Shown here piece by piece: positions 34,192 through 55,086 of a DNA stretch of 64,000 nucleotides. The stretch is from the NCBI GenBank assembly GCA_030532825.1, contig JAUNKK010000006.1:6938-70937 (forward strand), written 5' to 3'. The DNA comes from Propionibacteriaceae bacterium (GTDB taxonomy: Bacteria > Actinomycetota > Actinomycetes > Propionibacteriales > Propionibacteriaceae). The notes beneath the pieces were generated by a model. That model saw only the letters and a program-made list of their open reading frames with translations. It made no database searches and had not been told where the DNA came from. Position 1 is the stretch's first letter. Every line of letters starts with the position of its first letter. The position numbers and the translations under genes are program-made.

Positions 34192-34309
34192 CCCCAAGGC
34201 CATCCATTTTCACTTCAGGACGCCGTTGCCGGGGTTGAAATTACCAGACCCGACGTAAAGTCTAGTGCGAAGCCGGAGATGTCGGCACCCATCGACCCGA
34301 AGGAGTCCC

Positions 34310-35698
34310 ATGACCACCGAACTCACCGTCGATCTGCTCGTCATTGGGTGGGGCAAGGGTGGCAAGACCCTGGCCCGGAAGCTAGCGCTGGCAGGCAGGA
34401 GCGTGGCCGTGGTTGAGCGCGATCCGGAGATGATCGGCGGCACCTGCATCAATATCGCCTGCGTCCCCACGAAGGCCCTGGTGCACGACGCCGAGCAGGT
34501 GCGGCCCGGAGACGACGGCGCGGCCGCGTGGCAGCGGGCCGTGGCGCGTCGCGGGACGCTCACGGGGGCGATGCGCGCCAAGAACGCGGAGCTAATCGAG
34601 ACGATCCCATCCGCGATGGTGGTCCTGGGCGAGGCCCGATTCGTTGGCCCACGGCAGGTGCGTGTTGCGGCTGCCAACGGGGAGGTCACGATCACGGCCG
34701 AAACCATCATCATCAACACCGGCTCCATCCCGGTGCTGCCGCCGATCCCAGGCGCACAATGGGGTGGCCGTATCCACAACTCCACCACCATCCAGCAGCT
34801 CACCAACCGGCCCGGGCGCCTGGCGGTGGTGGGGGCGGGGCCGATCGGGCTGGAGTTCGCCTCCATCTTCGGGCAGTTCGGGTCCGCGGTGACCCTGCTG
34901 AACCGTGGGGCGCAGATCCTGCCCGGCGAGGACGAGGACGTGGCGGCCGCCGCCGTCGGGTCCCTGACCGATGCCGGGGTGCGGCTGCTCAACGAGGCCG
35001 AGACAGTGGGGCTTGAGGATGGCGCCGATCACGTCGTGGTCTCGTGGCGGGACGGCGACGGCACCCACGCGGAGGAGTTCGACGCTGTGCTGCTGGCGAC
35101 CGGACGCACCGCGGCCACCGCATCGCTCGGGCTGGAAGCGGCGGGCATCGAGACCGATCCGCGGGGCTTCGTCGTCGTGGACGAGCAGCTGCGCACGAGC
35201 GTCGAGGGGGTCTACGCCGTCGGTGATGTCAACGGCGGGCCTCAGCAGACCTACATCTCCCTGGATGACTTCCGGATCGTCGTGGATCAGCTAGCGGGTG
35301 GGCAACGGTCGACGGCGGACCGGCAGGCCGTGCCAAACGTCATCTACACGACACCGCCCATCGCGCGCGTCGGCGTCAATGAGCGGCAGGCCCGGACGCT
35401 GCCGGGTGCGGTCGGCGTGGCGGCCAAGCCCGTCGCGGCCATCGCGATGATGCCCCGGCCGAAGATCGACGGCGACGCCCGCGGGCTCGTCCGCTTCGTC
35501 GTGGACTTGGACACCGATCAGATCCTGGGGGCGACGCTGATGCATCACGCAGCCGACGAGATCATCAACCTGGTGGCCATGGCCATGCGCCATGGCATCC
35601 CGGCTTCCGCGCTGCACAGCGCCATCTACACCCACCCGTCGGCCACCGAGGCCCTCAACGAGGTGCTCGGGGAGCTCCGGCCGCTGGCGACGGGGTAA
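34310..35698 (+). CDS. FAD-dependent pyridine nucleotide-disulfide oxidoreductase (mycothione/glutathione-reductase or dihydrolipoamide-dehydrogenase-like)
   Basis: 'LLVIGWGKGG' FAD GxGxxG. Redox-active disulfide 'GGTCINIACVPTK'. Second Rossmann 'LAVVGAGPIGLEFA'. C-terminal dimerisation His region 'HHAADE'. Start at MTTELTV with AAGGAG RBS. Confidence 0.8.
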   Translation: MTTELTVDLLVIGWGKGGKTLARKLALAGRSVAVVERDPEMIGGTCINIACVPTKALVHDAEQVRPGDDGAAAWQRAVARRGTLTGAMRAKNAELIETIPSAMVVLGEARFVGPRQVRVAAANGEVTITAETIIINTGSIPVLPPIPGAQWGGRIHNSTTIQQLTNRPGRLAVVGAGPIGLEFASIFGQFGSAVTLLNRGAQILPGEDEDVAAAAVGSLTDAGVRLLNEAETVGLEDGADHVVVSWRDGDGTHAEEFDAVLLATGRTAATASLGLEAAGIETDPRGFVVVDEQLRTSVEGVYAVGDVNGGPQQTYISLDDFRIVVDQLAGGQRSTADRQAVPNVIYTTPPIARVGVNERQARTLPGAVGVAAKPVAAIAMMPRPKIDGDARGLVRFVVDLDTDQILGATLMHHAADEIINLVAMAMRHGIPASALHSAIYTHPSATEALNEVLGELRPLATG

Positions 35699-35745
35699 GT
35701 GCGTGGTGGGCGGCTGAGCGACCGGCCCCGGGGTGCGCGCGCCAC

Positions 35746-36453
35746 CTACGGAAAGACCTCCCCGGAGCCAGGCAACGGCAAGTCGGGATCGATGACGAAC
35801 ACCTCTAGGTCGGCGGCGGTGAGCTCGACGAGCAGCGCCTCGGGGCCGCTGATATAGAGCGAGTCGTGGTAGGCGGGGCAGGCCATGACCACACTGAGCG
35901 AGTCCGAGCAGGCGATCAGCGGGTAGTGCGAATGCCCTGGCGGGTTTCCGTCGGGTTCGCGCAGCCACGCAGGAGGCTCGTAACGCAACACCACGCTATC
36001 GCTCAGACTCCCCGATGCCGTGAAAGCGAGGTCCGCCACCACATGCCGCGGTAGGGTGCGCAGCAGCGGCGGTGCCGCATCAAACCCTAGTGAAGCTGGG
36101 TCGTCGGCTGTGGTGGCGTACCCTTTCCACGCGGCCCACCAGCACTGCTCATCGGACTCTAAGATGCGCGTCAGCGCACCCGCCAAGGCGGTGTTCAGCA
36201 GCCCCGTCATTTGCGCGAACGGAGGGGCGTAGTCCATCGTCGGGCGTTTCCCGAGGGTCACACAGACTTGCAGCCAGGAAACGGTTGCTGACAGTTGGTC
36301 GCGCGGAATGAAGTGCGACCAGGTCACGTCTTCGCCGTCGCGCTGCATGGGCAGGAGAACCCGAGCGACTAGCTCATGCTCGCCGTTGACCAGGTCACCG
36401 ACGCGGCAGGTATACGGGTGGGAATGCAGCCCTTGCGTCTGTCGGTCATTCAT
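35746..36453 (-). CDS. Hypothetical cytoplasmic protein (last gene of a 3-gene coupled cassette)
   Basis: 235 aa with no signal peptide. The start overlaps the upstream lipoprotein stop by 4 nt. Confidence 0.5.
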   Translation of the reverse strand: MNDRQTQGLHSHPYTCRVGDLVNGEHELVARVLLPMQRDGEDVTWSHFIPRDQLSATVSWLQVCVTLGKRPTMDYAPPFAQMTGLLNTALAGALTRILESDEQCWWAAWKGYATTADDPASLGFDAAPPLLRTLPRHVVADLAFTASGSLSDSVVLRYEPPAWLREPDGNPPGHSHYPLIACSDSLSVVMACPAYHDSLYISGPEALLVELTAADLEVFVIDPDLPLPGSGEVFP

Positions 36454-37034
36454 GCGTAGAGACCATAGGTGACTTGTTCCAAGTCCATCGCAGGAATGTT
36501 GTAGAAGACTTCCACGGTCACGAAGAGAGTGCGTACATCAAGATCCGCGACGATGGTGACCTCAGATTCGCCGACAGTCGTCGTGCAAGAACTACCGGAT
36601 TGTTGTCCACCATCTTCGGATTTCGAACACGCCTGCGCTGCTATCTCATCGGAAAGGAGCCCGTCATCATCAAAACTAGTGAAGCTACGGACTACGACCA
36701 TTTCTGGCCTCACCCCCGAATTGACGCCCAAGACAAGTTGCGATGGCGTCGTTAGCTTTGGGAGTCCTTCAGGCATCCCTGTGGGGTTGGTCTCAACAAA
36801 TTCACTGTCAGGTTCACGCCATATTGATGATAGAGGCTGCAGTGTCACACCCTCAACTATGGCTGTTGGCGGCTGGGCTGGCGGCTCCTCCACCTGAGAC
36901 AACGGAGCATCGTAAGATGACTCTTCCGGTGAGATAGTCTCTTGGGTGTCCTGTCGGTTGTTGGCACAGGCAACCAGGCCAACAACCGGCAGGATCAACA
37001 GCCAAGCCGAGAATGCGCGAACGATGCTCAGCAA
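36450..37034 (-). CDS. Hypothetical lipoprotein
   Basis: Signal peptide plus lipobox 'VVGLVAC'. Acidic mature part. GC is ~52%. The start overlaps the upstream stop by 7 nt. Confidence 0.55.
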   Translation of the reverse strand: MLSIVRAFSAWLLILPVVGLVACANNRQDTQETISPEESSYDAPLSQVEEPPAQPPTAIVEGVTLQPLSSIWREPDSEFVETNPTGMPEGLPKLTTPSQLVLGVNSGVRPEMVVVRSFTSFDDDGLLSDEIAAQACSKSEDGGQQSGSSCTTTVGESEVTIVADLDVRTLFVTVEVFYNIPAMDLEQVTYGLYA

Positions 37035-37606
37035 GAGAACTGACTCACACCTGGGATCTGCCAGTTCCGGCTAGTGGCCCGATAGATTTTGCCACCTTCA
37101 CGGGAGGCGTGTGCGGAAAAGCCACGATACTTGCCATCCTCCACGCCCTGGCATACCCAATGCGGCGTAGCGTCATAGGATGTCGCCTTGTTGCTCCTCG
37201 CCGAGGAATCAATCTTGAGCGGCTGTGGGCCGAACCATCTGTCCCGATAGAGTGCGGTTACCACCTCTACCCGCGACACCGCCTGGTTGCACTTCGTGCG
37301 TCCGTGTACCGACGCGTGGATTCCGCTCTTGTGTGGGTAGTCCGTCGATCCCTGGCACCCTGCGGGTGAGACCAAGACTGCTTCATCTCGACTTGAGGAA
37401 TCAACTGCCGCAGCAGCTGGAACTGGTGTGTCAGTCGACAAGGAGTCTTCAGTGATCGTGGCTGGGCTCAAGAGGGACAGGCCGTCGTCCTCTGAGTCAT
37501 CGGCTGTTGCTGCGGTCGGCGAGATGAGGCCGACTGTGAGCACCATTGCACCGAACGCGCTTGCCAGGACCTTGCGGGTGTTTGGGAACAACCTTGTGAC
37601 GTTCAT
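37028..37606 (-). CDS. Hypothetical secreted Cys-containing protein
   Basis: Sec signal 'MNVTRLFPNTRKVLASAFGAMVLTVGLISPTAATA'. The mature ~155 aa has 4 Cys. It is preceded by an AT-rich promoter region (37607-37800). Confidence 0.55.
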   Translation of the reverse strand: MNVTRLFPNTRKVLASAFGAMVLTVGLISPTAATADDSEDDGLSLLSPATITEDSLSTDTPVPAAAAVDSSSRDEAVLVSPAGCQGSTDYPHKSGIHASVHGRTKCNQAVSRVEVVTALYRDRWFGPQPLKIDSSARSNKATSYDATPHWVCQGVEDGKYRGFSAHASREGGKIYRATSRNWQIPGVSQFSC

Positions 37607-38109
37607 ACGTACCTCCTCTACATGCGATAGATATTACCTACGGTACATGTCAAGTAAAGTTTATGTAACCCTCTGATTCGTCTCAGTTTAAACCCCGGCC
37701 GGAAAGAACCCAGTACCTCACGAACACCTATTGGGTGCGTAGGGCAGTCTTCAGGCAGCGGGTAGGCAGCATATTCCGGTGGGGCGCTCATCCTTGCCAC
37801 CAAAGTCGCCTCGGTTGCAAGGCCCCAGAGCTTGGACCAGCATTACTCGGAACTTGCCTCCAGCCATCGGGCTCGCGCCATGCAGAGGACCACTCCGCCC
37901 GGTTCCGACATTGACTGGGGGTCAACTCCGCACTGCGGGTCGTAGCCCCTGGAGCGAAATCCTGCATTCATTCATGGCGACGAGTGCTGCAGCGAGTTCC
38001 CTAGTCGGCACATTAGTCAACACCCAGCGAAGCACGCGGGTAGCACCGCGAGGGAGCGCGAGGCGGTGCCACACGGACGGAGCAAGTTTGCTGTTTTGTC
38101 GATAAATCT

Positions 38110-39036
38110 CTAAGTCCCTAGGCCGGCATGTGGCTCCACCGTCCGGCCGTCGATGACGGCCATGATGCGTTCCAAGTCGTCCGTCGAGGCGAATTCAATG
38201 GTGATGCGGCCCTTGTTCTTCCCGATGGCTACCTTGACCCGGGTGTCGAAATGATCCGAGAGCTGCGCGGCGACGGCCGCCTCACGCTCGGAAGGGATGC
38301 GCTGCACACGCGGCGTCGGTTCGCCCGGGGCGGCCTCGGGCTCGTCGCCCAGCCGCACGATCTCCTCGGTGCTGCGCACAGACAACCCCTCAGCGACGAT
38401 GCGCTCCGCCAGCAGCTCTTGGGAGCGCCGATGCGTCAACCCCAGCAACGCCCGGCCATGCCCCGCCGACAACACGCCAGCCGCTACCTTAGTCTGCACC
38501 GTGGAGGGGAGGTTCAGCAGTCGCAACGTGTTCGAAATCTGCGGGCGACTACGGTGAATGCGCTGAGACAGCTCTTCCTTGGAGCAGTCAAAATCGGTCA
38601 GCAGTTGCTGGTAGGCCAGCGCCTCTTCCAACGGGTTGAGGTTCGCACGATGGAGGTTCTCCAGCAGCGCATCCCGAAGTAGGTCGTCGTCATCCGTGCC
38701 GCGAACAATGGCTGGGATCGTATCTTTGCCCGCCAGCTTCGAGGCGCGGAAGCGTCGCTCGCCCATGATGAGCTCGAACCGCTCCGGCTCGACCTCGCGC
38801 ACTACCACCGGTTGCAGCACGCCGAACTCACCGATGGAAGCCGCCAGCTCCGCTAGGTCGTCTTCGTCGAAGACGTGGCGCGGCTGGCGGGGGTTGGGGA
38901 CGATGACGTCCAGGGGCAGCTCGACAAAATACGAGCCGTCGCGCAGTTTCTGCGAGGGCTGCGTCGGTTCCTCTTCGGTCCGGGCGAAGAGATCGCCCAG
39001 CCCCTTGCCAAGTCCGCTTTGCTTGGGTTTAGCCAT
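38110..39036 (-). CDS. parB: Chromosome partitioning protein ParB
   Basis: 'MAKPKQSGLGKGLGDLF', ParB box 'GERRFRA', HTH region 'LSQRIHRSRPQISNTLRLL'. Confidence 0.9.
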   Translation of the reverse strand: MAKPKQSGLGKGLGDLFARTEEEPTQPSQKLRDGSYFVELPLDVIVPNPRQPRHVFDEDDLAELAASIGEFGVLQPVVVREVEPERFELIMGERRFRASKLAGKDTIPAIVRGTDDDDLLRDALLENLHRANLNPLEEALAYQQLLTDFDCSKEELSQRIHRSRPQISNTLRLLNLPSTVQTKVAAGVLSAGHGRALLGLTHRRSQELLAERIVAEGLSVRSTEEIVRLGDEPEAAPGEPTPRVQRIPSEREAAVAAQLSDHFDTRVKVAIGKNKGRITIEFASTDDLERIMAVIDGRTVEPHAGLGT

Positions 39037-39038
39037 GG

Positions 39039-40046
39039 TCAGTTGCCTTCCTCGGTCACTGCTGCATTGGCAATTTCCTCCGCCGCTTTGAGATAGGCGA
39101 CGGCCCCGGGGGACTTGGGGTAGTAGGTGATGACGCTTTGGCCGTAGCTGGGCGCCTCGGCGATGCGCACCGAGCGCGGAATCTCCGTCTCCAGCGTCTG
39201 TGCGCCGAAGTGTTTACGGACTTCGCCCGCTACCTCGTGGGACAGATTGGTGCGATTGTCGAACATCGTCAGGACTACGGTGCTCAACTCCAGGTTGTCA
39301 TTCAGGTTGCCTTTCACCTTGTGAATGGTGCGCATCAACTGCGAGACGCCCTCCAGCGCGTAATACTCGGTCTGGATGGGGACCATGATCTCCGTCGCAG
39401 CCACCAAGGCATTCAACGTCAGCAAGCCGAGCGACGGGGGGCAGTCGATAAACACGTAGTCAACGCCGGATTGCTCGATATAGGCCTGGAGTGCCCGCTT
39501 GAGTTTCGACTCCCGACCGCTCTCGTTGACCAACTCAAGCTCCGCCGTCGAGAGGTCAATCGCGGCCGGCAGGACATGCAGGTTCGGGTTGTGTGGGGAC
39601 TGCTTCGCCAACTCGTCGATACGGGCTCCCCGGAGCAGTACCTCGTAGGTGCCCGGGGTCCCGGGGTCGTGATCGACTCCCAGCGCCGTCGACGCATTGC
39701 CCTGAGGATCAATGTCTACCACCAGCACGTTTAACCCGCCGAAGGCCAATGCCGTGGCAATGTTCACGGCCGTCGTGGTTTTGCCCACGCCACCCTTCTG
39801 ATTCACCACGACGAAGACACGGGGATCTTTCGGCGTGGGGAGTGCCGGGGAATCTGTCACTTCTTGCTCCATCCCGTATTCATCGTCGGTGTCCCAGTCA
39901 TCGTCCTCACGATCGAAGCGCGCCCTCCGTGGCCCAGGAGGGGTTTGGATGGCCGTTTCACGTGAAACGGCGGCATGGTCTTTCCACGGCTCGACATCGA
40001 CGTCGGGCTGGGGAGCACGCTTTCGCTTACGAAAGAACAAAGCCAT
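39039..40046 (-). CDS. parA: Chromosome partitioning ATPase ParA/Soj
   Basis: Deviant Walker A 'NQKGGVGKTTTAVN'. Start chosen at 'MALFFRKRKRAP' (ATG 40046-40044) with GAAGGAGG RBS 5 nt upstream. The upstream 63 codons of the track ORF are parS-driven frame artefact. Confidence 0.85.
   Translation of the reverse strand: MALFFRKRKRAPQPDVDVEPWKDHAAVSRETAIQTPPGPRRARFDREDDDWDTDDEYGMEQEVTDSPALPTPKDPRVFVVVNQKGGVGKTTTAVNIATALAFGGLNVLVVDIDPQGNASTALGVDHDPGTPGTYEVLLRGARIDELAKQSPHNPNLHVLPAAIDLSTAELELVNESGRESKLKRALQAYIEQSGVDYVFIDCPPSLGLLTLNALVAATEIMVPIQTEYYALEGVSQLMRTIHKVKGNLNDNLELSTVVLTMFDNRTNLSHEVAGEVRKHFGAQTLETEIPRSVRIAEAPSYGQSVITYYPKSPGAVAYLKAAEEIANAAVTEEGN
39954..39969. promoter_or_regulatory. parS: parS (ParB binding site) #1, CGTTTCACGTGAAACG, inside the parA 5' coding region
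   Basis: Perfect 16-bp palindrome matching the canonical parS tGTTTCACGTGAAACa. The wider 20-bp palindrome is gccgtttcacgtgaaacggc. Confidence 0.85.
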
Positions 40047-40107
40047 TGAGTCCTCCTTCGATGCGCCAACTTTAGCCGCCAGCGTGTTTGATTCACGACC
40101 GCCACGG

Positions 40108-40123
40108 CGTTTCACGTGAAACG
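40108..40123. promoter_or_regulatory. parS: parS #2, CGTTTCACGTGAAACG, ~60 bp upstream of the parA start
   Basis: Identical 16-mer in gcgtttcacgtgaaacgc context. Confidence 0.85.
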
Positions 40124-42759
40124 CTTGGTCAAAAGTGTCACCATCATTGAGCTTGGCGTCATCCGATAGTTTGACTGATGCCGAGTTGGGCGTGACAACG
40201 GGCGTCACCCGCAGCGCGCGCCGCCCAACCGCCACCAGGACGAGCTTCGGCCGCCAGGTTTCCGGCCACCATCAGCCGCTGGGTCCATCAGCCGATGGGG
40301 TCCAGCGGGGCGGTGTGGATCCGCTGCTCAACCGTCCCACACCGAGACACAGCCCCGCTAGCCGGTCAGCGAACACACCACCCGGTTCACCAGTAAGCGT
40401 CCCCTGCATCCGGTGCGCTTCCCAAGTAGGACTGGCTCGGCGAAAGCACTAACGCTTGGTCTCGGGCTTTCGGTCGCAGGGGGACGGGGTGGCGCCCGCT
40501 TCATCGGCTGGAATCTTCCTGCGAGTCCCGGGGTGACCGAGTTGGCCCAGCATCCCCGTCGTCGACGATACCCAGAACCCTCGCCACCTCACCGCAGGTC
40601 TCTCAGCGCTCGCGCGAGGCGAAAGCGCCCACTGCCTTCGGACGGCGAATCCAAGCGAGGCCCAGCGTGACCACTCATAGCGGCCAGCCCTGGGCCGCCA
40701 CGGCTACCAAGAGATATCCCAGATGTGGACCTGATCGGTTCCCGGCGACTCGGAAGTGGAGCGGCCAGACGACCGGACTCTGGGCGGTGTCCCGACGATT
40801 CCCGTCGATTGAGGACCGTGAGGCTGCAACAGGGCAATTGTTTCGCGGGATGCTCTCCCGGGGGGGTGGTCCGCCGATGCCAGGGCCATGAACACGTCGA
40901 ACCTGTCATGGCTCACTGCGGCCCTCCTCAGCGAGACCATGCTGTCCGCAGGCTGGCGAAGGCCGTCGACTGTCCACGTTATGAAGAGACCCCACGGCCG
41001 ACGGGGGCGAGCTATCCCCACCAGCAATCGATCTGTGCCGCCACGATCCGATGACAGCATCCCGGATTATCAATGACAGGGCGCTAGGTTATGCCACACC
41101 CGGAGGCCGATGTCCCGCCCATGGGGCTAGCTGGAAGGCAACGGGGCGCGGAGCTGTGGGAGTCCGTTGTGGCGATGGACCCTACGGTCAAGGGGACGGT
41201 TGCTTGACGGCAATTCCGGCGGTGAGTCGTCAGGGCTCACCACCATGATGTCCCTGGCTCGACACGAGCGACGCGCCATCGCTCCTTGCCACTCGGACGA
41301 GGGAACGCTCCCGAGGGGCACGCGAGGGAAGTGATGGCCTGGTCCGGTCAGTCACGCCATCACCTCGCCTTGGGGCCCGTCGGCTGCGTGGTACCCGATG
41401 TCGGAGTAGGGCAAGCGCCTTGACGGCCCGAGCCTCACCGTTAGCCGGGGTGGTCGCCGTCCTTGGCGTCTTCACCAGCCGAAGGCCCCTGCGCGGGGTC
41501 CTAGGTCAGTCGCCGTGCTTGGGCAGTCAGTCTCGCAACTGCCCGGCTACGTTCTTCGCGCTGGAGCGAATGACGTGACGTGACGGGTGCGGCAGGACCA
41601 TGACACCCGGTGATCAGGCGGTTACGCGCCGCTCATCGACACTGCACCAGCTGGCTTGGCGATTTCCTGACATCGCGACGTTTAGGGAGAGTCGCCTCCG
41701 TCGAGGGCCGGAAGTTATGCGGCACGTCCGACAGACCTTAGCGCTTGCGCGTCCTGGGGGGCGCCTCACGGCGAATTCCAAAGACTCGCGTCACCACCCA
41801 GTGGCGCTTCACTCATCGGCCATGCGGTACAGCCACCCCAAAACCCGCACATGTCGAAGAGCCTCGGACACACGACGCTAGCTCCCGTCAGTCTCTCTCC
41901 GTTAGCGCCGCATGGCAGTACCGCCCTAGTGCGTCAGTGCCTTCGCCTTACACCACGATGGAAGCCGTCCTCCGCAACGCGACTTCACATCACGCTGGGC
42001 AACCGCATTGATGCTCCCAGCTAAACGAGAGACAGACTCCTCGTGCCACGGGATCCCACTGATCTTCCGCACCCGTCCGGGGGGCTGCTCGTTCAGCGTG
42101 GCGTCTGAGTACTGGCCGGGGTGCCCCAGGAGTCGCACCGGATGCTAGGCAGCCCGGCAACGGGCCAGTGGGGAGATTCCGCCACGTCACCCATTCCAGC
42201 CACCGGGCAGGGCCACCAATGATTACGGCGTTCTCCAGGCCTGGCGGTTGCCTCAACCATGACCGGGAGCCGGGATTCCCGTCACCGGACGAGACGGGAA
42301 TCGGCGGAGTTTCCGGGGGCCCTGAGCCGACCCCCGAACACCAAGGCGACTCCCGAGGTTAAGCGGCAGCGAAGTGAAGTGACTTGAATACAAGCGAAGA
42401 GCCACTCGCACCACGACGGCCCGCTTGGAACGAGCAGCGACGGTGTACATCTCGCGCGACGCTTCACGCAGGGGAAAACAGCGCGGGAGCCGCGGTGGTG
42501 CGTCCTCTGAGGACGTCACGCCGCTCGGGACTTGGTCCGGAACCGCAGCCTCAGCTCGAGTCGGCTAGCCGCCTAACGGCGTAGCGTCGAATTGGCGTCC
42601 GAGGGGGCGCGGCGGGCTTTTCATTTCAAAGCCAATGGGGTCCAAGAGATAGCTAGAGCAGAGCCTCGTCCTAGAACTTGCCAGGACCACGAGAGTTGAC
42701 ACCAGCTCCCCCTGACCTCTGTCTGGCGTTTTCGGTGGGTCAATCGCCGCCGACTCCGG

Positions 42760-42775
42760 CGTTTCACGTGAAACG
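42760..42775. promoter_or_regulatory. parS: parS #3
   Basis: Identical 16-mer CGTTTCACGTGAAACG (ggcgtttcacgtgaaacgcc). Confidence 0.85.
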
Positions 42776-43080
42776 CCTCACCACGAAGACTGCTTCGGAT
42801 CATGAAAGCCGCCGCAGCATCACGCGTATAACTCTGGTTCTAGGCAACCAAAGCTCACATCCTGCACTCTTCGCCCAGCGAGATACCGGAGCTCGCAAGA
42901 GTCCTGGAGTTGCGCCACTTGCAAAGTGCATTCACGTCCAGCCTTGCTTGCCACGGTCTCGGGGCAGGGGCTAGGCGATGGGAAAGACTCTCGCGGCCGT
43001 ACCTGTCCGCCTTCTTCATCGGCTTCGTTCGGACGATGGCAGCGTCGAGTAGCTCAGCCGCGTGCCACGCCTCCCGGAGT

Positions 43081-43135
43081 TCTCTCTAAATCTATTTATC
43101 GATATCTCTTTTTATAGTTATATATGGAAGGCGAG
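43081..43135. repeat. AT-rich islet A (tctctctaaatctaTTTATCGATAtctctttttatagttatatatgg)
   Basis: ~55-bp AT-rich patch in ~62% GC surroundings, containing the TATCGATA palindrome. Confidence 0.45.
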
Positions 43136-43715
43136 AAGGCGCTACCTGGCAGCGGTCGATAGGTTGGTTCGCCACCATGCAGTTCTTCCCCTCAGCAATC
43201 GGAGGAGCCGCTCAGCGCGGCAGCGAGAGCGGATCCTTGGACTCCCTCCCCGAACCACCCATAGTTGTTGGAGCTGTCCGAATCAGCCACCACGCCCCGC
43301 ACTCACCACGAGCCTCTGAACGGCTTCCGAGTCGCTTGCTCGGATGGCAGATTCGCCGATGGGCACCTTCCCGTCCCGGCGGAGGAGGTGGAGATCATTC
43401 GCGAGCGAGCAACTGCGTAGCGAGATCGGCCAGGAGATCGGCGAGCAGCTGGAAAAGCACCAATACTCCCGAGCTCGCCCTCCATACCGAACGAGGTCGA
43501 ATAGTACCCTCCTGACGTATCGGCTCGGCGCCGCGGTACGCGCCTTGGGGTGCTTGCTTCGTTAGAGCAGAAGTGCGCGGACATATGCGAGGCCGAGACT
43601 TCGCCACCGGCGAAAGATGGATTAGTGCGCCGACCGACGGCCCCGCACCATTCAATTGGCTTCGCACGCTGAACACGCATCATGTGCCTAGGCATAGCCG
43701 AGTCCCACGGTGCAG

Positions 43716-43731
43716 CGTTTCACGTGAAACG
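43716..43731. promoter_or_regulatory. parS: parS #4
   Basis: Identical 16-mer inside the 22-bp palindrome cagcgtttcacgtgaaacgctg. Confidence 0.85.
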
Positions 43732-43855
43732 CTGCGGCAAAAGGCGATGGGACGGTGCACTCCAAGGGCATAGCAGCGGCGCCTCCTGATGCCGGCTTTC
43801 AAAGCCGAGCATCCCTAACGACTCCCATCACACGTGCGCCTAGCCGCGCGATACC

Positions 43856-43871
43856 CGTTTCACGTGAAACG
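43856..43871. promoter_or_regulatory. parS: parS #5 (140 bp from #4)
   Basis: Identical 16-mer (cccgtttcacgtgaaacgg). Confidence 0.85.
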
Positions 43872-46002
43872 GTAAGTCGTTACGTCCCGCTCTGTTATAT
43901 CCCTATTTCATCTTCCCATCGCGAATCACGGGGCATGGGACCGTCGGCGATCCACTCCTAGGAATCGCTGGTCCGTGATGATGACGAAGGTCACGGCGCA
44001 CCGGCACAAAGGCCAAAGCATCCTGCCCCCCAACAAGATGTCAGGGGATCGGCTACGGCACTAACGCACGTGGCCCAGCCGGCCCTTCCCCGAAGCTCCC
44101 ACTAGTGCGAGCAAATGGCGCCTGATCATAGACAGACCGAACTCTCCATGGCAGCTGCCCGCTGACCTGCCCCACCGGTAGCGCATTGGTGCCTCACGTC
44201 GTCAGACAACCACCCATCCGTACCGCTTGCGCTGCCTCGAAGTGTCTTCTCGGCTGCGCCGCAGCCAGCGCTAGCCAAACGTCACGCCCGCCGCCGGTTC
44301 CTCCGCATCCACCAGCCTCGACGGTGCCAGTACCCGGCTCCCGATATCCCGATAGAGCGGGATCCATCACCTCGGGGTGGACTGTTCGTGAGGCCAACCC
44401 GCAAACCCGACTCGCCCTCACCCAGGAGTGACGCATTGGCACGCTCACGCCAGACTGCTCGGCCCATAGCCATCGACGAACCAACTGGCCGACGGCTGCC
44501 GTCCCATGGTCCAACCCTGGCACCCCTTGGATCCACCTCGCTAAGGCATCCAGGAGTCTTCTCGACACCTACGACAACACTGGACCGGCCGGTGACCGAG
44601 CAGGTCCATCGGACTGTCAGCTGCGATCACGGTGCTTAGCAGGGCCTATTTGAGCGCGCCCAAACCTCACGACCTGGTGTCAACCTCCCTGATGCCACGG
44701 CCGCGTTACAACCTTGCTTGGCTTCTCAAGGCGTAGGGTGTCTCGGGTGGCCCGCTTAGCGCCCAACTGCGAACGCTGAAGGTTGGCGTGTCACGTGAAG
44801 TCTTCCAAAGGCCGACGCCGAACAAGCGGCGGGGGCGCAAGTCTGCGGCAACCATCCCTACGAGCCGACCCAACTCGGGTCTCAGCAAACGACTGCGGAG
44901 GAACGCGCTTGGCGGCAATGACGAGTCGCCCCCCTCGCCAACTCAAGGGGCCTCGAAGCAAGACAGGACCACCGCCAACGTCTTTTAGCGGCACGTAGCC
45001 AGGTATCCCGTGGAGTAGCCAAAGCGGGACTTCGCCTCTCTGAGGCAGCCCTTGCCGAGCCTAACGGTGACGGCCTCGCTGCATTCCCGGACTCCGTTCC
45101 TGCCCTAAACGTCCCATGTCGACGGCGGTCCGGGCCCTGCTGCGCATCCACAGTCCAGACGCAGCAGACGCGAGTGGTTTCGTCCCGCCGAGGACTTCAC
45201 GTGCAACCCCGGTGACGCCTGCGGCGATCCGCGTCCGCTGCGTGTCAAGAACCCTGGCCGGTCCTTCCCAGCAGCTGTCTTCCCCGCGTCAATAGGCTGT
45301 GGTATTCACGCTCGTGGCTCCCGGGGACGCCCTATGAACATCTCCGAATCCGTCCACGCACCGACCCGCTCAGGCGGGGCCACAGGTCCTCGAATTCCTA
45401 CTCCCTGCACTCTCGGCGTCGCGCCTGAAAACCAGGCCGTCGCGCACGCCTAGGATCTCGGCTTCCCGAAGGCTCAAAGCGAGTTCATGATCAAGCTAGA
45501 TCCAGCCGCCCAATGGCTCGGGCACTTGACTGGACTGTAGATGTCTTCCGCGCTTCGCCAGAGATTCCCGGCGCTGACAGGCAACGGCCCGCCAAGCTCT
45601 GCCGTAACCCGACAAGGCTGCCGTGAGGCTGCCACGTGGTGCAGCTCGATCCCGGCGAAGATGCCAAGCGTCGGCGTCGTGGAGGTTCCGTCGAGGCATG
45701 GCGGCGTCCTGCGGAGCGGCCGAGGACGGGCCTTGAGGCCTAGCCCGGTTCCAGCACCCGCCTGGAGAAAGATGCGAGGCAAGCAACAGGGCAGCCGATC
45801 GGGCAACCTAAGCCGCCAGGGGGCATGCCGGGTTGGCCAGCGCCGGTACCAGCCGCCTGAGGACCCAATGCGTCCCGTCGGTGGGGCCGCCCACGGCTAC
45901 AACCTTGGTCAACCCCGCCTCGAAGGGAATCGACCAATGAGCCGAGCAATGAGCTGGAGATCATTCCCCGTCAGGCCGAGGGAGCTCCAAGTAGGTACTT
46001 CC

Positions 46003-46050
46003 AGCTATAACTATATATCGATATATAGTTTTACCCTTTCCTGCTAAAAA
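46003..46050. repeat. AT-rich islet B (agctataacTATATATCGATAtatagttttacc)
   Basis: Shares the TATATATCGATA 12-mer with islet C and TATCGATA/tatag with islet A. 2,919 bp from A. Confidence 0.45.
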
Positions 46051-46261
46051 GCGTCGTCATCTGCTGGCCAACCTCGTTCCCGCTCGTTCTCGTCCCGCAG
46101 ACACGGTGCGTCGGTGAATCAGCGCTCGTCTCGAAGTTGCGATCTGGTGGCCTTTCCGACTGACAAACTCGCGTCCTTCCGCCCTCAGCCCCTACGCCCC
46201 TTCACAGTCCGAAAACCAGTGGCCTCGTAGGGCACCCCTGGGTTTAAGTCGCAATTCCAGG

Positions 46262-46277
46262 CGTTTCACGTGAAACG
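46262..46277. promoter_or_regulatory. parS: parS #6
   Basis: Identical 16-mer (ggcgtttcacgtgaaacgcc). Confidence 0.85.
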
Positions 46278-47274
46278 CCCAATCCACCCAGTAGGTGCCA
46301 AACACCTGCAGACTGAACGTTGGCTCACCTCGCATTCGCCATCCGCCTCAAGCGTGAGGCCAACACGTCCCATCACCTCCTAGTCCGCCAAAACCCGACC
46401 CGCGCTCCCGGCATGAGGCCCCTCGCTGGCTGATGCTTCAGTCACAGGCTCGCATGAGCACTCGCACGGGGATATCGCAGATCTCGCGACGAAACTGGTT
46501 CCTCCTAGACGCTGCCCCCGTCGCTGGGTAAAACGGCTCCGCCTGGAATGCCCATTAGCGTCGCGAGAGGCAGCCACCTCCTCACCTTCGAAGCGCCGAG
46601 CCTCCCCGATGCCGGGCACCGTCGAGACCTCTGCGGACGACGTGGCGGTTGAACATGCGAGCCACAGACCCTGCCACGCGCTGCTCCAGACTCCCGGGGG
46701 GCCGTCCGGTTCTTCCGCCACCACTACCGCACCCATCAGGCACCCCGACTCCGCTAACCGTGGCTCAATGCCGCGATCGGCCAGGTTACACCGGAGACCC
46801 GGTCTAGGAACCAGCCGGTGCACAGTCCACTAGGCGACAGCACCACTACGGTGTCGGCGTCCGCCCAGGCCTCTACCGCGTCCCGAAAGGCAGGCGAGGA
46901 GCTCTCGCGGTCAGGCCGGTTTCGTGGCTGGAGAGCTATTGCCCTCTCAAGTGCATAAGACGAGCGACTTGTCAGTTCACTAGGCGCCGACCCTCTTGTC
47001 TTCCCAGCGGTGACGTGGCGACAAGCAATCTCTGCCGCGCAACCTTCGATATCTGTGGGCCCAAATGGATCAAGTACTTCGCGGCCTTAGTCACAGCTAG
47101 AGCTTCAGTAGAGCGTTCTGCTGCAGAGCGTCTGAGGCGACGGCATGCCTAACCAGCCGAAAGTGATCGCCTGAATGCCCGACTACGACGTACGGTATTC
47201 CCGGCGCGAGGAGATACATGCCAACGCCGCGCCAACACACCGCCCGTTCACCTAGAGGCCGCGATCTGTCCGCC

Positions 47275-47290
47275 CGTTTCACGTGAAACG
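47275..47290. promoter_or_regulatory. parS: parS #7 (with duplicated left half-site cgcccgttcac 34 bp upstream)
   Basis: Identical 16-mer (cccgtttcacgtgaaacgct). Confidence 0.85.
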
Positions 47291-48785
47291 CTGACACAGG
47301 CCCAAATCCGCTGGAGGAAAGCGATCGCCGGGTGTGGTCCACACATTGGCCTCTGCGCATTCCCCTGGGATTGGGGAGACTCCGCCAATACCGCCGCCTG
47401 CCTGGGGCTATATGGCGACGAGGGACTCTGAGCGGTAGCAACAGTCAGCCTCTCCCTGAGCGGGCCGCCAAGTCTTCCTGGCTCGTCGACCACCACCGTC
47501 GTAAGAGGTGACGCCCTTGCAACCGCAATTCACATCAACTTCACCTACTCCGGGACTATTCCCACCTTGGCTGCTCACATACACTCATTGGCTGAATCCG
47601 ACGGGAGGAACCTAATCGCCATTCTCAAACGGCTACAGATCACATCGTCCTCCGTGCTCTGCCTTCCGTCCATCCGACGACAGCAACTCCGAGCACACCT
47701 GACACAGCTAGGGAAGTCGCGGGCCACGTGCTCCGAAGTCTCGGCGGAACCCGTCCTGGTGCCTCCGGCGATGAGTCTTCGGTCCCCTGGTCACGGCCGA
47801 GTGACCACACACTGCACGGCGTCCGCCGGAACCGTCGGCGGTCCCGCCCCGTGGCTGTTGTCGGCGACGATGTGTCCTGAGCTGCCCGGGCAGGACCGGC
47901 GGTCACAGCACCGAGACGACGGCCAAGCAAACCCACGAACTGCCTGAGGAGAAACTGTTGCCCGGGGCCGTGGCATGGGTGTCGCTTCCGCTCAGTGGTC
48001 ACGCGGTCCCCCGGGGGCGGAGCGACGCCAGGTGGGCGAGGGGCTTCAGCACGGCTCCGACGCCGGCACCTCGACCCGCGCCGATGGTGCTGTCGGGTGC
48101 AGACACCGCGAGCCGGGACCTAGTGCCGTGCGTCCGAGAGTCCTTGGGGTTTGCGGCGCCCTGGGGCGGTGCCTCGCGGCGAGCCCCAAGGACTGGGCTA
48201 CCAGCAAGGAGCGCTTCGCTCGTCGGCCCCCGGCAGCAGCCACCCCAAAACCGGACCTGCTGAAGAACCTCGAACAGTCGACACCAGGTGTGGGCGTCTG
48301 CGTCCATCTGAGTCCCGAGGACTACCCCTTCCCTTCAGGCACGATCGGATGAGGGACTCGGCCACGACCGACCGATGCAGCCGTTGCGGTGTACCGTAGC
48401 GGCGCGTGGCACGGTTGACGGCCGCCAGCTCGCCGGACATCGTCGCTGTTGCCCACCTCCATGCTGCAGCCGAATCCCCAGCCAAACGGGTACCTGACGT
48501 AGCAGCCACAGCAACAGGCTAGGCGCCAGCCGCCGCGGGTCAGGAGACACGGCCTCCGGCGTCTTGAGTCTGCAAGCTGCCGAACCCGTGCCGTAACAGC
48601 AGCGCGTCAGCTCCACGCAAACCACCCTGGAGAAACCCAGCTGAGTGAACTTTCGCCGTAGTGGTTCCTCACCGGCCCACCCCATCGTTCTCTTGACCAA
48701 GCTAGGCGCCCGCCCCATCCAATCCGAGATTTGCCACCGTGGTTGCTGTGGCTCGCCCGTGCGTGGCGACGAGCCCCGCAACTGA

Positions 48786-48840
48786 AGCAAATCTCTAACC
48801 CTATATATCGATAAAGAGCTAAATAAATCTATTGGTTGTT
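48786..48840. repeat. AT-rich islet C (aatctctaacccTATATATCGATAaagagctaaataaatctattgg)
   Basis: Shares 'atctctaa' with islet A and TATATATCGATA with islet B. 2,789 bp from B. Confidence 0.45.
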
Positions 48841-49594
48841 AGCGACTCCCGCGACGCTCCAAGGTGCCCACGAACCCCTCCCCGTAAGTGTTCCGCCGCT
48901 TGACGCCACTCAATCACCACCTCGGGTTGTCTGCACCGGGCCATACCGGTGGGCGAGTCGTTGGAATCGACACCAGGGCTTCGGACAGATCCAGTCCCAT
49001 TCCCGATGCATAACCACCATTGGCCAGAACTGCTAGGGCCCAGGACCTGGGTTGAGCACGCCCCCAGGCCAGAATTGCGCCCCTTCGTGGCCGCCGCCCC
49101 TCGTCGAGGTACCGGCAAATCCGCGCGGCGACCCATAGTCTTCACATCCGCCGATGACGCAGGAGTTGGTAAGGACTCGTCATCGGCTGTTTGACTATGG
49201 CCTGCACTGCTGGGGTGCAGTGTGGCGGGCGTTGCGATAGCAGGATGGCGTTGCTGACGCGGCTGTGCCGCGGATTGAGTTCATCACTGATAGGCCACAG
49301 CAAGGGATGAACTCCCTAGTCAACTCCAAGGCGATCGACTGTGCTGACCCCTGGTTGATGTCCCGATGCGCCCATCGGAAACTTACGACGGCGCGCAACG
49401 CCAGCCGCCAGAATCGCCGCCATCCTGCGACAGCATGGCCGCCCGTCCTCGATCACTGGGCAACCCGGCGAGCAGCCTGGACGAGCTGAGCCAACCACCC
49501 CCTCACGACGCCGGGGATAGGGTCGCCCAACCCCAGATTCAGCCGTGGGCAGCCGATTGATCCGACCTCACGCCTTGCTGATTCCCAGGCGGCC

Positions 49595-49610
49595 CGTTCC
49601 ACGTGAAACG
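49595..49610. promoter_or_regulatory. parS: parS #8, variant CGTTCCACGTGAAACG (B. subtilis-type half-site), ~170 bp downstream of the rsmG stop
   Basis: One mismatch from the other seven. It matches the classical TGTTCCACGTGAAACA parS. Confidence 0.8.
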
Positions 49611-49778
49611 TCCCGAGGTCGCCTCGCCGTAGAGTCGATTCCCTCCGGGCCTGCGCTGAACACGCAGAATCGCAGCTGTGGATAACCCTGCGGATAACTC
49701 GAAGAAAAGACGACTATCCGAACTTTCGAAACCGACCTAGCGTCACAACCCGGCCGACTCACCCCCGTCGGGCAGGCA

Positions 49779-50423
49779 CTATCGGGCAGCAGCTACGCGG
49801 ATGGCGCGCGTTCCCGCCACTCCGGGGGCGGCGCGCACGTGCAGGATCGTCGCGGTGAGCCTCGAACGCTCCAGCAGTCTGTGGGCATCGCGGATCTCAT
49901 CCTCGGCGCTGGCCCCTTTCAAGGCCAACAGACCGCCCTGTGGATAAAACAGTGGAATAGTCCATTTCAGGAGCTTCTCCAATGGGGCGACGGCGCGGCA
50001 GGTGACGACGTCGAACACCTCGTCGCAATCCTCAGCCCGAATGCGCTCGACTCGCACGCGGTCGCCAAGCCCTAGCTCTTCGACGGCCTGGTTGAGGAAG
50101 TTGTAACGTCGCAGCAGCGGTTCGAGCAGCGTGAAGCGCAGGTCCGGCCGACAGATCGCCAGCGGTAGGCCGGGTAGTCCAGCGCCGGAGCCGACGTCAG
50201 CGACGTCGAGGCCTTGACCGATGACATCTACCAGCGCCAGCGAATTGGAGATATGTCGTCCCCAGATCTTGTCGCTTTCACGGGGTCCCAGCAGGCCCCA
50301 CTCGATGCCTCGGGTCCGTAAGATCTCCGCGTAGGCATCCAGCGCGGCGGCCCCTTCCGGGAATCGACGGCGCAACTCGTCGCTCACGGCATAGCCTCCC
50401 ATCAACCTCGCCAACCGGATCAC
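49779..50423 (-). CDS. rsmG: 16S rRNA (guanine527-N7)-methyltransferase
   Basis: 214 aa with SAM-binding 'VADVGSGAGLPGLPLAI'. Conserved origin-region synteny. Confidence 0.9.
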   Translation of the reverse strand: MIRLARLMGGYAVSDELRRRFPEGAAALDAYAEILRTRGIEWGLLGPRESDKIWGRHISNSLALVDVIGQGLDVADVGSGAGLPGLPLAICRPDLRFTLLEPLLRRYNFLNQAVEELGLGDRVRVERIRAEDCDEVFDVVTCRAVAPLEKLLKWTIPLFYPQGGLLALKGASAEDEIRDAHRLLERSRLTATILHVRAAPGVAGTRAIRVAAAR

Positions 50424-50607: not shown

Positions 50608-51129
50608 TCAGTCCTCGGCCTTCTTGGACACCACGACGCGCCGGAACGGCGGCTCGCCCTCCGACTCGCTGGTCAGGCCGGCGGCCGCCACCTCATCGTG
50701 GATGATCTTGCGCTCGTAGGGGTTGAGCGGCGCCATGCGCACCGGCTCCCCGCTTTCGCTGACCTCCGCAATCGCATCCTTAGCCAACGCCACCAGCTCC
50801 AACCGTCGCTTCTCGCGGAACCCGCCGATGTCCAGCGTCAGCCGCGAACGCTGCCCCGTCTCGGTCACCACGACGAGACGCGACAACTCCTGCAAAGCCT
50901 CCAAGACCTCGCCGTCCTTGCCGACGAGCCTGTCGTCGTCGGTGTCGATGGCGACGTGCGCGCGCCCAGCCGACACCGAGTTCTCGATGTCGCCATCCAG
51001 GTCGGCGATGTCCAGTAATTCTTCGAGGTAGTCCGCTACCAGATCGCCCTCGGCCAGCAGCGTCTCGTTGTCCTTCTCTTCACTCATGCCAGTCTCCGAT
51101 TCAACAGCCCCAACCAGGGCAAAGGTCAT
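50608..51129 (-). CDS. jag: Jag/KhpB-family R3H-domain RNA-binding protein
   Basis: KH-like and R3H regions ('NPYERKIIHDEVAAAGLTSESEGEPPFRRVVV'). ATGA overlap with the yidC stop. Confidence 0.85.
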   Translation of the reverse strand: MTFALVGAVESETGMSEEKDNETLLAEGDLVADYLEELLDIADLDGDIENSVSAGRAHVAIDTDDDRLVGKDGEVLEALQELSRLVVVTETGQRSRLTLDIGGFREKRRLELVALAKDAIAEVSESGEPVRMAPLNPYERKIIHDEVAAAGLTSESEGEPPFRRVVVSKKAED

Positions 51130-52208
51130 TTCTTCTTCCGCGCCTTGCGCGAGGTGTGCTTGGGCTGACGACGCACCACCGTCTTACCGGAGTCCTCGCT
51201 GGTGTCCCGGACCGTCGTGCGTGCCACCTGCTGTCGCGCCACCTTGCGGCGCCCGTTCTCGTCCGTTTCGACATTCTGCGCGGGTGCGGGACGCTTGATC
51301 TTGCGACGCTTAGCTACGCGCGCGGCGTAGATCGCATCGGGGTCCTTGCCCTGGGCGCGCATCCGCTCCTCCCATTCGATGAAGGCGGGCGTGTTCGGCG
51401 CCGGGTTATTACGGATGAGAAGCCACTGCTGGCACATGGTCCAGATGTTGCTAGTCAACCAGTAGATGAGCACACCGATCGGGATGACCACCGACGAGAA
51501 GGCGTACATCAACGGGAAGAGGTACAGCATCAGCTTCTGGGTCTGCGCCATTTGCCCCGTCTGGGCCTCCGGCGGCATGTTCTTACCCATGTTCTGCAGC
51601 TGGGTGGCGACCAGGGTCAGCACCATCAGCACCACCAGTGCGATGCCGGCGATCTGAGTGATGCCGAATGGCGTCAGTGGGAAGATTCGCCGCGAGAGAC
51701 CGACGCCCCACAGTTCAGCGTTCTGCAGCGACGTCACGAGCTCGGGGTTGGCTCTGAAGAAATACCCGCGGACTTGGTTGTCTGCGACACCTTGCAGCAC
51801 CCGGAACAGCGACAGCAGCACTGGCGCCTGCAGCAGCATCGGGAAGCAGGAGGCCATCGGGTTGACCCCCTCTTCCGCATAGAGCTTCTGCATCTCGCGG
51901 GCCACCCGCTCGCGGTCGCCGCCGTACTTCTTCTGCAGCTCCTGAAGCTTCGGCTGCAGCAACTGCATGGCCCGAGCGGAGTTGATCTGCTTCACGAACA
52001 GCGGGATCATCAGGGTCCGCACCACCAGCGTCAGGCACACGATGGCCAGCGCCCAGGAGATCCCGGAGTCTTTGCCGAATATCGGACTCCATAGCGTGTG
52101 GAACAGCACCACCATCCCTGATACTGCCCAGTACAGGGGCTGCATCATCGCGGACAGCACACCGTAAATGCTGTCCCAGATAGACAGGGACACCAACAGG
52201 TCGATCAT
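51126..52208 (-). CDS. yidC: Membrane protein insertase YidC
   Basis: 360 aa with 5 TM helices of the Oxa1/YidC core. Basic C-terminal tail 'RRQPKHTSRKARKKK'. Confidence 0.9.
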   Translation of the reverse strand: MIDLLVSLSIWDSIYGVLSAMMQPLYWAVSGMVVLFHTLWSPIFGKDSGISWALAIVCLTLVVRTLMIPLFVKQINSARAMQLLQPKLQELQKKYGGDRERVAREMQKLYAEEGVNPMASCFPMLLQAPVLLSLFRVLQGVADNQVRGYFFRANPELVTSLQNAELWGVGLSRRIFPLTPFGITQIAGIALVVLMVLTLVATQLQNMGKNMPPEAQTGQMAQTQKLMLYLFPLMYAFSSVVIPIGVLIYWLTSNIWTMCQQWLLIRNNPAPNTPAFIEWEERMRAQGKDPDAIYAARVAKRRKIKRPAPAQNVETDENGRRKVARQQVARTTVRDTSEDSGKTVVRRQPKHTSRKARKKK

Positions 52209-54717: not shown

Positions 54718-55086
54718 TCCCTGAACCCTGATCACCTCCGCAGCGTCCCGGCCTAGCTGGGACCCTGCTGCGTCGCGATGCCATCGCGCCACGGTGAGGC
54801 GTTCGCGCAGCGTGTGTTGTCCACAGGTGCTGTGTGATGACCGTGGATTCGTCAGTGAACGGCTGAAGTCCCCGGACTATCCCACAAATCCTCCCCGTGT
54901 AGTTTTCGACCCTTCCACAGCCCTTCCACACCCCGAATCGAACTCTGACTAGGGGTTTTAATCATTATCCACAGGATCCACAGGCGTTACTACGGATACT
55001 AAGATGTAATTACATCAAGTTCTTCAAACTCACGGCACGCGGAACTGTGGAAGCCATCCACCTGAGGTTCCGGGTAGCTTGAAGTC
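54718..55086. other. oriC: oriC candidate: DnaA-box cluster plus AT-rich unwinding stretch immediately downstream of dnaA
   Basis: At least 9 DnaA-box-like 9-mers: TTGTCCACA 54817-25, TATCCCACA 54878-86, CTTCCACAG 54912-20, CTTCCACAC 54923-31, TTATCCACA 54965-73, GGATCCACA 54974-82, TGTGGAAGC 55046-54, CCATCCACC 55054-62. AT-rich 'tactaagatgtaattacatcaagttcttcaaactc' lies at ~54996-55030. Confidence 0.6.

Follow-up and report, generated by a model that had tools for sequence, protein, structure and literature searches.

An array of eight probable parS sites in a 9.7-kb gene-free tract beside parAB of an Arachnia-like actinobacterium

We analyzed a 64,000-nucleotide stretch of a Propionibacteriaceae genome (contig JAUNKK010000006.1, positions 6,938 to 70,937; hereafter the window) and identified eight 16-bp palindromes that extend from the chromosome partitioning gene parA to the neighborhood of rsmG. 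As a whole, the array is best explained, with a probability that we put at roughly 0.82, as the chromosomal parS centromere of an Arachnia/Pseudopropionibacterium-like actinobacterium. The sites are separated by non-coding DNA, and the tract that they occupy has the look of a dedicated regional centromere. Genes usually fill bacterial chromosomes densely, and it is rare to find close to 10 kb without any gene next to the origin. The Logan assembly of run SRR24915807 was 100% identical to our sequence over 11.3 kb spanning the tract.

An exact search of the window for the 16-mer CGTTTCACGTGAAACG returned seven copies (Table 1), with 0.00 expected in 100 shuffles of the window, which confirmed the claim of the initial annotation that seven identical copies could not be due to chance. 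A search of the whole 64 kb with the 14-mer core, allowing up to two mismatches, added a single match, CGTTCCACGTGAAACG (core from 49596), and thereby recovered the one GTTCCAC variant that had also been reported. At the sequence level the sites have every property of chromosomal parS: seven carry a perfect 14-mer core of the 16-bp inverted repeat tGTTtCACGTGAAACa, the consensus that is given with verified parS examples in PMC7022226, and the eighth has one GTTCCAC half-site, a form that is bound by ParB in other systems (PMC7022226). The same variant, CGTTCCACGTGAAACG, was kept between L001 and L084, two of the parA-centred loci of Actinomycetota (L-numbers) that we compared with the window. 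With eight sites in 9.66 kb beside parAB, the array exceeds the five sites taken as the lower limit of a cluster. The spacings were irregular (154, 2652, 956, 140, 2406, 1013 and 2320 bp) and included the two close pairs, 154 and 140 bp apart, noted previously. When three mismatches were allowed in the core, two matches fell inside the array and one elsewhere in the window; the two inside the array are the degenerate copies mentioned by the initial annotation and are plausibly decayed parS sites. Close pairs recurred at 140-157 bp (~14-15 helical turns) in several species, also at places other than the parA start (39954/40108 and 43716/43856 in the window; 7426/7567 and 9922/10079 in L001; 959/1105 in L003; 1984/2135 in L082; 5163/5320 in L083).

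We considered whether the 16-mers could instead be a generic palindromic repeat of the repetitive extragenic palindromic (REP) type, or operators of another CACGTG-binding regulator. Palindromes centred on CACGTG are bound by other regulators in some organisms, and our scan spanned 64 kb. However, no copy occurred in the remaining 54 kb of the window by either the exact search or the core search with up to two mismatches, and the flanks of the copies differed beyond 1-2 bases, indicating that they are not pieces of a larger repeat unit. In addition, parS cores verified by experiment have the identical sequence (PMC7022226), the sites are kept at orthologous positions amid drift, and in 161 actinobacterial loci the motif was found clustered near parAB. 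The identification of the 16-mers as parS is thus well supported by sequence comparison, and an origin as generic repeats or as operators of a different regulator appears extremely improbable. A dispersed repeat of the REP or miniature inverted-repeat transposable element (MITE) type was likewise rejected, given that the sites shared no extended flanks and had no copies elsewhere in the 64-kb window. Tandem or segmental duplication was rejected as the source of the array; Tandem Repeats Finder (TRF) reported trivial repeats only, and the repeat search returned the parS family, AT-rich islands and a 170-nt repeat, the last two of which are described below. Assignment to a structured RNA, to clustered regularly interspaced short palindromic repeats (CRISPR) or to a tandem array failed on the absence of an Rfam match, the trivial TRF repeats and the irregular spacing.

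The genomic context is that of a chromosomal origin. The initial annotation had described a match to the ParB consensus adjacent to parAB, and this was borne out by the core match, by Pfam, by the GERRFRA motif and by similarity to Spo0J; a predicted oriC places the canonical parAB operon in the origin region. The Pfam search gave the order dnaA–rpmH–yidC–jag–rsmG–tract–parA–parB and likewise identified recF in the origin region. Both cognate genes, for ParB and for ParA, are present, and the ParB protein matched Spo0J of Bacillus subtilis (6sdk, E=1e-51), the Helicobacter pylori ParB-parS complex (4umk, 2.6e-48) and Caulobacter ParB (6t1f). The start of parA is most likely the ATG at 40046, which has a putative ribosome-binding site, GAAGGAGGA, just before it. 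From this start it follows that one site lies in the 5' coding part of parA and one just upstream, as had been proposed (Table 1). The array lies 5-15 kb from the predicted oriC, that is, in an origin-proximal position, and hence not on a plasmid or phage. A plasmid or phage origin was also rejected because a megablast of 36-52 kb against PLSDB and INPHARED was empty and the surrounding genes are those of a chromosome. All six perfect DnaA boxes of the window lie within 49.6-55.0 kb. Two of them, together with one single-mismatch box (of the TTATCCACA type), were found at 49677-49697 and 49939-49947, near the right-hand boundary of the tract and within the 3' part of rsmG; they lie at a distance of 70-80 nt from parS-8 and ~5 kb from the predicted oriC.

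The initial annotation had also spoken of a dedicated non-coding tract, and four independent criteria (codon periodicity, length of open reading frames (ORFs), GC content at the first, second and third codon positions (GC1, GC2 and GC3) and Pfam matches) showed that the ~9.7 kb between parA and rsmG are indeed non-coding. The spread of GC among codon positions was at most 0.15 in the tract (below 0.12 in all 600-nt windows but one) as compared to 0.25-0.5 in the adjacent genes. The longest ORF of the tract was 168 aa, and the largest ORFs had flat GC1, GC2 and GC3 values (0.56-0.69), while real genes in this DNA had a GC2 of 0.39-0.48 and a GC3 of 0.74-0.86. None of the 136 stop-free tract fragments of at least 50 aa matched Pfam at E<=0.01. 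The array was therefore not assigned to the gene-interspersed type of cluster found in C. glutamicum or C. crescentus, since parS-2 to parS-8 lie in DNA without coding signal, Pfam match or an ORF longer than 168 aa. Rfam gave no match at the gathering threshold in the window and none at E<=1 over 36-50 kb, and no tRNA was detected. Promoters and terminators were not enriched in the tract (one promoter-like sequence with 1.5 expected and two terminator-like sequences with 6.4 expected).

These measurements also bear on the idea of a long non-coding RNA or a set of small proteins encoded in the tract. A gene caller did put small ORFs in the tract (L081), and the 170-nt repeat folds with some compensatory changes. 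Against this, the tract was not conserved even in comparison with L082, the closest relative found, its counterparts in L001 and L084 diverged neutrally, and the flat codon-position values, the lack of Rfam matches and the lack of promoter or terminator enrichment all argue against a product. We regard an encoded RNA or set of small proteins as very improbable.

The closest relatives of ParA belong to the Arachnia/[Pseudopropionibacterium] group of the Propionibacteriaceae, with amino acid identities of 92% for L082, 83-84% for L083 and L084, 82% for L001 and L002, and 75% for L003 (A. propionica). The synteny from dnaA to parB was conserved in the relatives. Six relatives had 4-7 parS sites each, 5' of parA and within a segment lacking codon periodicity, which measured 2-3.6 kb in L001, L002, L083 and L084. 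Two parS sites that flank the parA start codon at about -77 and +78 were kept as a pair in L001, L002, L003, L082, L083 and L084. In the more distant L004 and L005 there is <1 kb from rsmG to parA, and the tract was <1 kb in L003, L004 and L005 as opposed to 9.7 kb in the window. The L004 locus, from an Arachnia propionica metagenome-assembled genome with a ParA 58% identical to that of the window, had four GTTCCACGTGGAAC sites in 360 bp 5' of parA (9421-9796) and no GTTTCAC-type site; this variant is the M. xanthus consensus, and parS searches at up to one mismatch therefore undercount. Overall, members of the clade had comparable numbers of sites (4-8 in the stretches compared) while tract length varied more than 10-fold, the window having the longest.

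The DNA between the sites turned over rapidly. We detected no similarity between the window tract and the tracts of L001-L005 and L082-L084, though the flanking genes were 70-82% identical at the nucleotide level. The similarity between the window and L082 (~80% in the flanking genes) ended at 40165, just past parS-2, and the tracts of L001 and L002 could not be aligned while their genes were 86-90% identical. The sole alignable pair was L001 and L084, with genes 88-97% identical; their tracts were 77.7% identical with 681 gap columns, and third-codon-position identity was 76.6% in parA and 83.4% in parB. In the same alignment all seven parS 16-mers, three variant ones included, were unchanged, with 0 substitutions in 112 nt. 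From the L001/L084 figures, the chance of zero changes in 112 positions at 22% divergence was calculated as ~1e-12. Since the tract diverges at the rate of synonymous sites and the parS sites remain unchanged, the filler is effectively neutral and the sites are under strong purifying selection. Conservation in relatives and purifying selection are both as expected of chromosomal parS. For the homologous arrays this is direct evidence of a function, which by extension can be suggested for the window array as well. We also noted five copies of a 55-70-nt repeat in the L002 tract (7923-9645), which was found near the oriC/dnaA side of L001 (945-1018) as well; small dispersed repeats populate such tracts in more than one species.

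A second conserved element was found in the tract. Three AT-rich islands (A-C), each ~60 nt long with a GC content of at most 30%, share a palindrome centred on TATCGATA. The sequence TATATCGATA, with up to one mismatch, had seven matches where 0.24 were expected, and six of the seven were within islands A-C. The palindromic core TATATCGATATA was present in the tracts of L001, L002, L082 and L084 as well, although the filler was not conserved, and the island core was largely conserved between L001 and L084. Islands A and C are each flanked by two parS sites, island B by parS-6 and the decayed site at 45194. In L001, L002 and L082, too, most islands were between two parS sites, with the exception of the L002 island at 6443. 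The AT-rich islands with TATCGATA were absent from the tracts of Micrococcaceae and Brevibacterium described below. Our guess is that the island palindrome serves as a site for a nucleoid-associated or boundary protein.

Table 1. Positions of parS sites, AT-rich islands and origin-region genes in the window, and of AT-rich islands in related loci (in the coordinates of each locus)
Feature	Coordinates	Strand	Description
parS-1	39954..39969	.	exact 16-mer; within parA codons 26-31 (AVSRET)
parS-2	40108..40123	.	exact 16-mer; 62-77 nt 5' of the parA ATG, leader/promoter region
parS-3	42760..42775	.	exact 16-mer
parS-4	43716..43731	.	exact 16-mer; paired with parS-5 at 140 bp
parS-5	43856..43871	.	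exact 16-mer
parS-6	46262..46277	.	exact 16-mer
parS-7	47275..47290	.	exact 16-mer
parS-8	49595..49610	.	variant CGTTCCACGTGAAACG, one half-site GTTCCAC; 169 nt past the rsmG stop codon
Probable decayed parS	44788..44801	.	GTGTCACGTGAAGT, 3 mismatches
Probable decayed parS	45194..45207	.	ACTTCACGTGCAAC, 3 mismatches
Gene-free tract	40047..49778	.	parA start to rsmG stop, ~9.7 kb
AT-rich island A	43075..43137	.	core TTTATCGATATC
AT-rich island B	45988..46052	.	18-bp palindrome CTATATATCGATATATAG
AT-rich island C	48785..48845	.	core CTATATATCGATAAAG
L001 island	9232-9295		AT-rich, TATATCGATATA core
L001 island	7746-7786		AT-rich, TATATCGATATA core
L002 island	8744-8805		AT-rich, TATATCGATATA core
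L082 island	1602-1671		AT-rich, TATATCGATATA core
L084 island	9275-9327		AT-rich, TATATCGATATA core
parB	38110..39036	-	308 aa; Pfam ParB_N, HTH_ParB, ParB_C; motif GERRFRA
parA	39039..40046	-	335 aa from ATG 40046 (most likely start); Pfam AAA_31/CbiA/ParA
rsmG (gidB)	49779..50423	-	Pfam; right-hand tract boundary
jag	50608-51129	-	Pfam
yidC	51126-52208	-	Pfam
dnaA	53179-54717	+	Pfam
Predicted oriC	54718..55086	.	just 3' of dnaA; DnaA boxes 54817, 54965; more TCCACA repeats; AT-rich element 54987-55030
dnaN	58848-60062	+	Pfam

We then asked how often gene-free DNA and parS sites coincide in other Actinomycetota. Among 161 parA-centred loci we used those of at least 5 kb with a GC content of at least 58% (1.68 Mb) and collected the segments that lacked codon periodicity over at least 2 kb. 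All 33 such segments held at least three parS sites (up to one mismatch) and none held zero; together they contained 237 of the 497 parS sites in 8.7% of the sequence surveyed. Most segments came from Arthrobacter, Pseudarthrobacter, Paenarthrobacter, Sinomonas, Micrococcus, Brevibacterium and Enteractinococcus, where the tracts lie 3' of parB, are 2-6.65 kb long and carry 3-12 parS sites; ORFs in three of these tracts had the same flat GC1, GC2 and GC3. Examples, at ~12000-18600 of the locus, are L014, L023, L024, L033, L036, L037, L053, L062, L064, L065 and L069-L080, among others. On the other hand, Amycolatopsis, Aeromicrobium, Pseudonocardia and Phycicoccus had 2-4 sites without such a tract. 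The recurrence of gene-free parS tracts indicates that the window, rather than being unique, lies at the far end of a pattern, and the 33/33 association supports a causal link between parS and the gene-free state, the direction of which it does not give.

The reason for the gene-free state can be read in two ways. ParB-coated DNA may be a poor home for genes, such that junk alone survives there, a reading supported by the gene fragment of 95 nt, the two 170-nt repeats and the small repeats of the L002 tract. Alternatively, the gene-free state and the spacing may themselves be selected, as a transcription-free regional-centromere platform on which no RNA polymerase would obstruct the sliding and bridging of ParB clamps; as part of the same proposal, the AT-rich palindromes amid the parS sites would be sites for a second factor, for example a nucleoid-associated protein or a boundary element. 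We hold selection of the platform itself, second factor included, to be possible but doubtful. It is in agreement with the 33/33 association, with the occurrence of tracts both 5' of parA in the Arachnia clade and 3' of parB in Micrococcaceae and Brevibacterium, and with the conservation of the TATATCGATATA islands, mostly between two parS sites, while filler is not conserved. However, tract length ranges from <1 kb to 9.7 kb at similar site numbers, so that the tract need not have any given length; the filler has accumulated many indels and changes at the neutral rate; in model organisms, parS sites within genes suffice (PMC5815017); and no factor is known for the AT-rich palindrome. In the same tentative vein, some Actinomycetota might have true regional centromeres, multi-kb, gene-free and transcription-poor, in which the filler turns over at or above the neutral rate and short motifs are kept. 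In the Arachnia clade these motifs would be parS and a second palindrome, CTATATATCGATATATAG, for a further partner, a suggestion that we put forward with equal reserve. If this were true, the occurrence of the architecture at two positions relative to parAB would mean that in these lineages a domain coated by ParB excludes gene expression, and vice versa.

The segment 46749-46842 looks like a stray gene fragment, a 95-nt piece 78% identical (E=5e-14) to 18796-18890 (-), which lies inside an FGGY carbohydrate kinase gene (17916-19439). A dispersed repeat of ~170 nt was present in three copies that were 70-76% identical, two within the tract at 41725-41886 (+) and 48119-48287 (+) and one in the dnaN-recF spacer at 60126-60295 (-). 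RNAalifold gave it -44 kcal/mol with double changes in nine pairs; it had no Rfam match, was absent from all 160 related loci and may be a MITE or a small RNA. When tract fragments were searched by tblastn for pseudogene relics in 80 related loci and in the remainder of the window, the only matches were the 170-nt repeat and one 43-aa FGGY fragment.

The kinase piece, the two repeat copies and the five 55-70-nt repeats of the L002 tract are what one would expect if the tract were decayed DNA (pseudogenes, or the remains of a mobile element or island) that happened to adjoin parAB, with parS being incidental. This explanation is improbable in our judgment. The absence of Pfam matches among the stop-free fragments (0/136) and the lack of plasmid or phage similarity argue against it, as do a GC content of 62-65% and a strong replication-type GC skew that resemble resident DNA. 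Moreover, a parS tract occupies the same locus across the clade, and the 33/33 association argues against coincidence.

Several observations nevertheless weigh against interpreting the whole array and tract as a centromere. Our count of the 16-mer covers 64 kb of the genome, and the parAB promoter was not located. The 95-nt gene fragment and the two 170-nt copies point to passive accumulation. In addition, two other ORF-poor stretches of the window, 1396-2996 and 36300-38100, contain no parS, showing that gene-free DNA in this genome is not exclusively centromeric. Part of the extra tract length may accordingly reflect a genome tolerant of junk rather than a need of the centromere. The stretch at 1396-2996 (1.6 kb, GC 54-59%, no ORF >120 aa) is flanked by a radical-SAM gene and a gene for a major facilitator superfamily transporter. 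The second one, at 36300-38100, has no coding signal and belongs to a segment of ~3.9 kb 3' of parB (34192-38110) that was missing from L001, had a GC content of 56-61% over 36.0-38.1 kb and contained ORFs without a Pfam match (35746-37606); this segment may be a small inserted island or decayed DNA. On the other side of the origin, a pair of ATP-binding cassette (ABC) transporter genes lies between the predicted oriC and dnaN (55054-58838), comprising an ATPase (55087-56208) and a MacB/FtsX-type permease (56212-58758), unlike in L084, where dnaN directly adjoins the oriC region.

Taking the array as the chromosomal centromere, its mode of action can be sketched from studies attributed to Soh (2019), Osorio-Valeriano (2019) and Jalal (2020), according to which ParB reportedly loads at parS as a cytidine triphosphate (CTP)-dependent clamp, slides, bridges DNA, stimulates ParA and loads SMC. 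ParB dimers produced from the neighboring gene would load at each parS site as CTP-dependent clamps and slide onto the flanking DNA. With eight loading sites 0.14-2.65 kb apart, ParB would coat approximately the whole 10-kb parB-rsmG interval; by analogy with the ParB zones measured by chromatin immunoprecipitation (ChIP) in Caulobacter and C. glutamicum, such coating would be the most likely function of the array. The coated interval would then form one partition complex per origin that is moved by ParA, with SMC probably loaded on it. The inter-site DNA is neutral gene-free filler, with selection solely on parS and on the second short AT-rich palindrome. Finally, the conserved -77/+78 pair would put ParB on the parAB leader, which makes negative feedback on parAB expression plausible and, we think, probable.

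If ParB-coated DNA does exclude genes in these lineages, it becomes testable whether transcription and ParB sliding or bridging disturb one another in vivo, and the size that a partition complex needs and the way its boundaries are set become testable too. The tract could serve as natural test material: its loading sites are perfect, identical and spaced at varied distances, its filler is neutral and a second motif is conserved. Furthermore, loss of codon periodicity combined with parS density provides a simple genomic signature for such centromeres in other high-GC bacteria. A literature search for gene-free or non-coding parS tracts, covering Actinobacteria, Arthrobacter, Micrococcus, Brevibacterium and Propionibacterium, found no description, though subscription papers might hold one. 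Clusters of parS are themselves well known and the extra tract length may be neutral; relative to the arrays described so far, the differences are that the tract is gene-free over 9.7 kb, that the sites are widely spaced, that the array runs into parA and that a second, AT-rich motif is conserved.

Comparison with known systems did not support the statement of the initial annotation that multi-site clusters are usually embedded in genes, since 9 of 10 sites are intergenic in C. glutamicum (PMC7083940) and the M. xanthus cluster packs 22 sites into 3 kb (PMC3899335). In Corynebacterium glutamicum, ten identical 16-bp sites (parS1-10) near oriC show ParB propagation zones by ChIP and act as a hub of SMC loading (Böhm et al. 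2020, PMC7083940). Like the window, this is an actinobacterial chromosome with clustered identical 16-bp sites near oriC; however, its ten sites are spread over 35 kb among ordinary genes, 73 kb from oriC, whereas the window has eight in 9.7 kb of gene-free DNA at 5-15 kb from the predicted oriC, and the outer parS bases are C/G in the window and T/A in C. glutamicum. Myxococcus xanthus carries 22-24 parS sites in a block of ~3 kb 5' of parAB, with ParB binding in vitro (Iniesta 2014, PMC3899335; Harms et al. 2013, PMC3778016). It shares with the window a dense parS array upstream of parAB, but it is a deltaproteobacterium with ~140 bp per site, the consensus TGTTCCACGTGGAACG and a block 4 kb from parA, the coding status of which is undiscussed in those papers, while spacings in the window are 0.14-2.65 kb and the array reaches up to and into parA. 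Caulobacter crescentus has at least five parS sites within 5 kb, beside parAB and 8 kb from ori, and its ParB covers ~10 kb in total with a spread of ~2 kb per site (Tran et al. 2018, PMC5815017). The overall size of that zone is similar to the window tract, but the Caulobacter sites lie inside essential or high-fitness-cost genes and those of the window in gene-free DNA. Mycobacterium smegmatis, an actinobacterium with the identical 14-bp core and oriC-proximal sites near parAB, has three chromosomal parS sites, GTTTCACGTGAAAC (table in PMC7022226), and no long gene-free tract reported, as compared to eight sites in the window. Further parallels were the tracts of Micrococcaceae, Brevibacterium and Enteractinococcus, which like that of the window are non-periodic, contain multiple parS sites and lie beside parAB, but are 3' of parB and shorter, while the window tract is 5' of parA and longer and, in contrast to those of Micrococcaceae and Brevibacterium, has TATCGATA islands.

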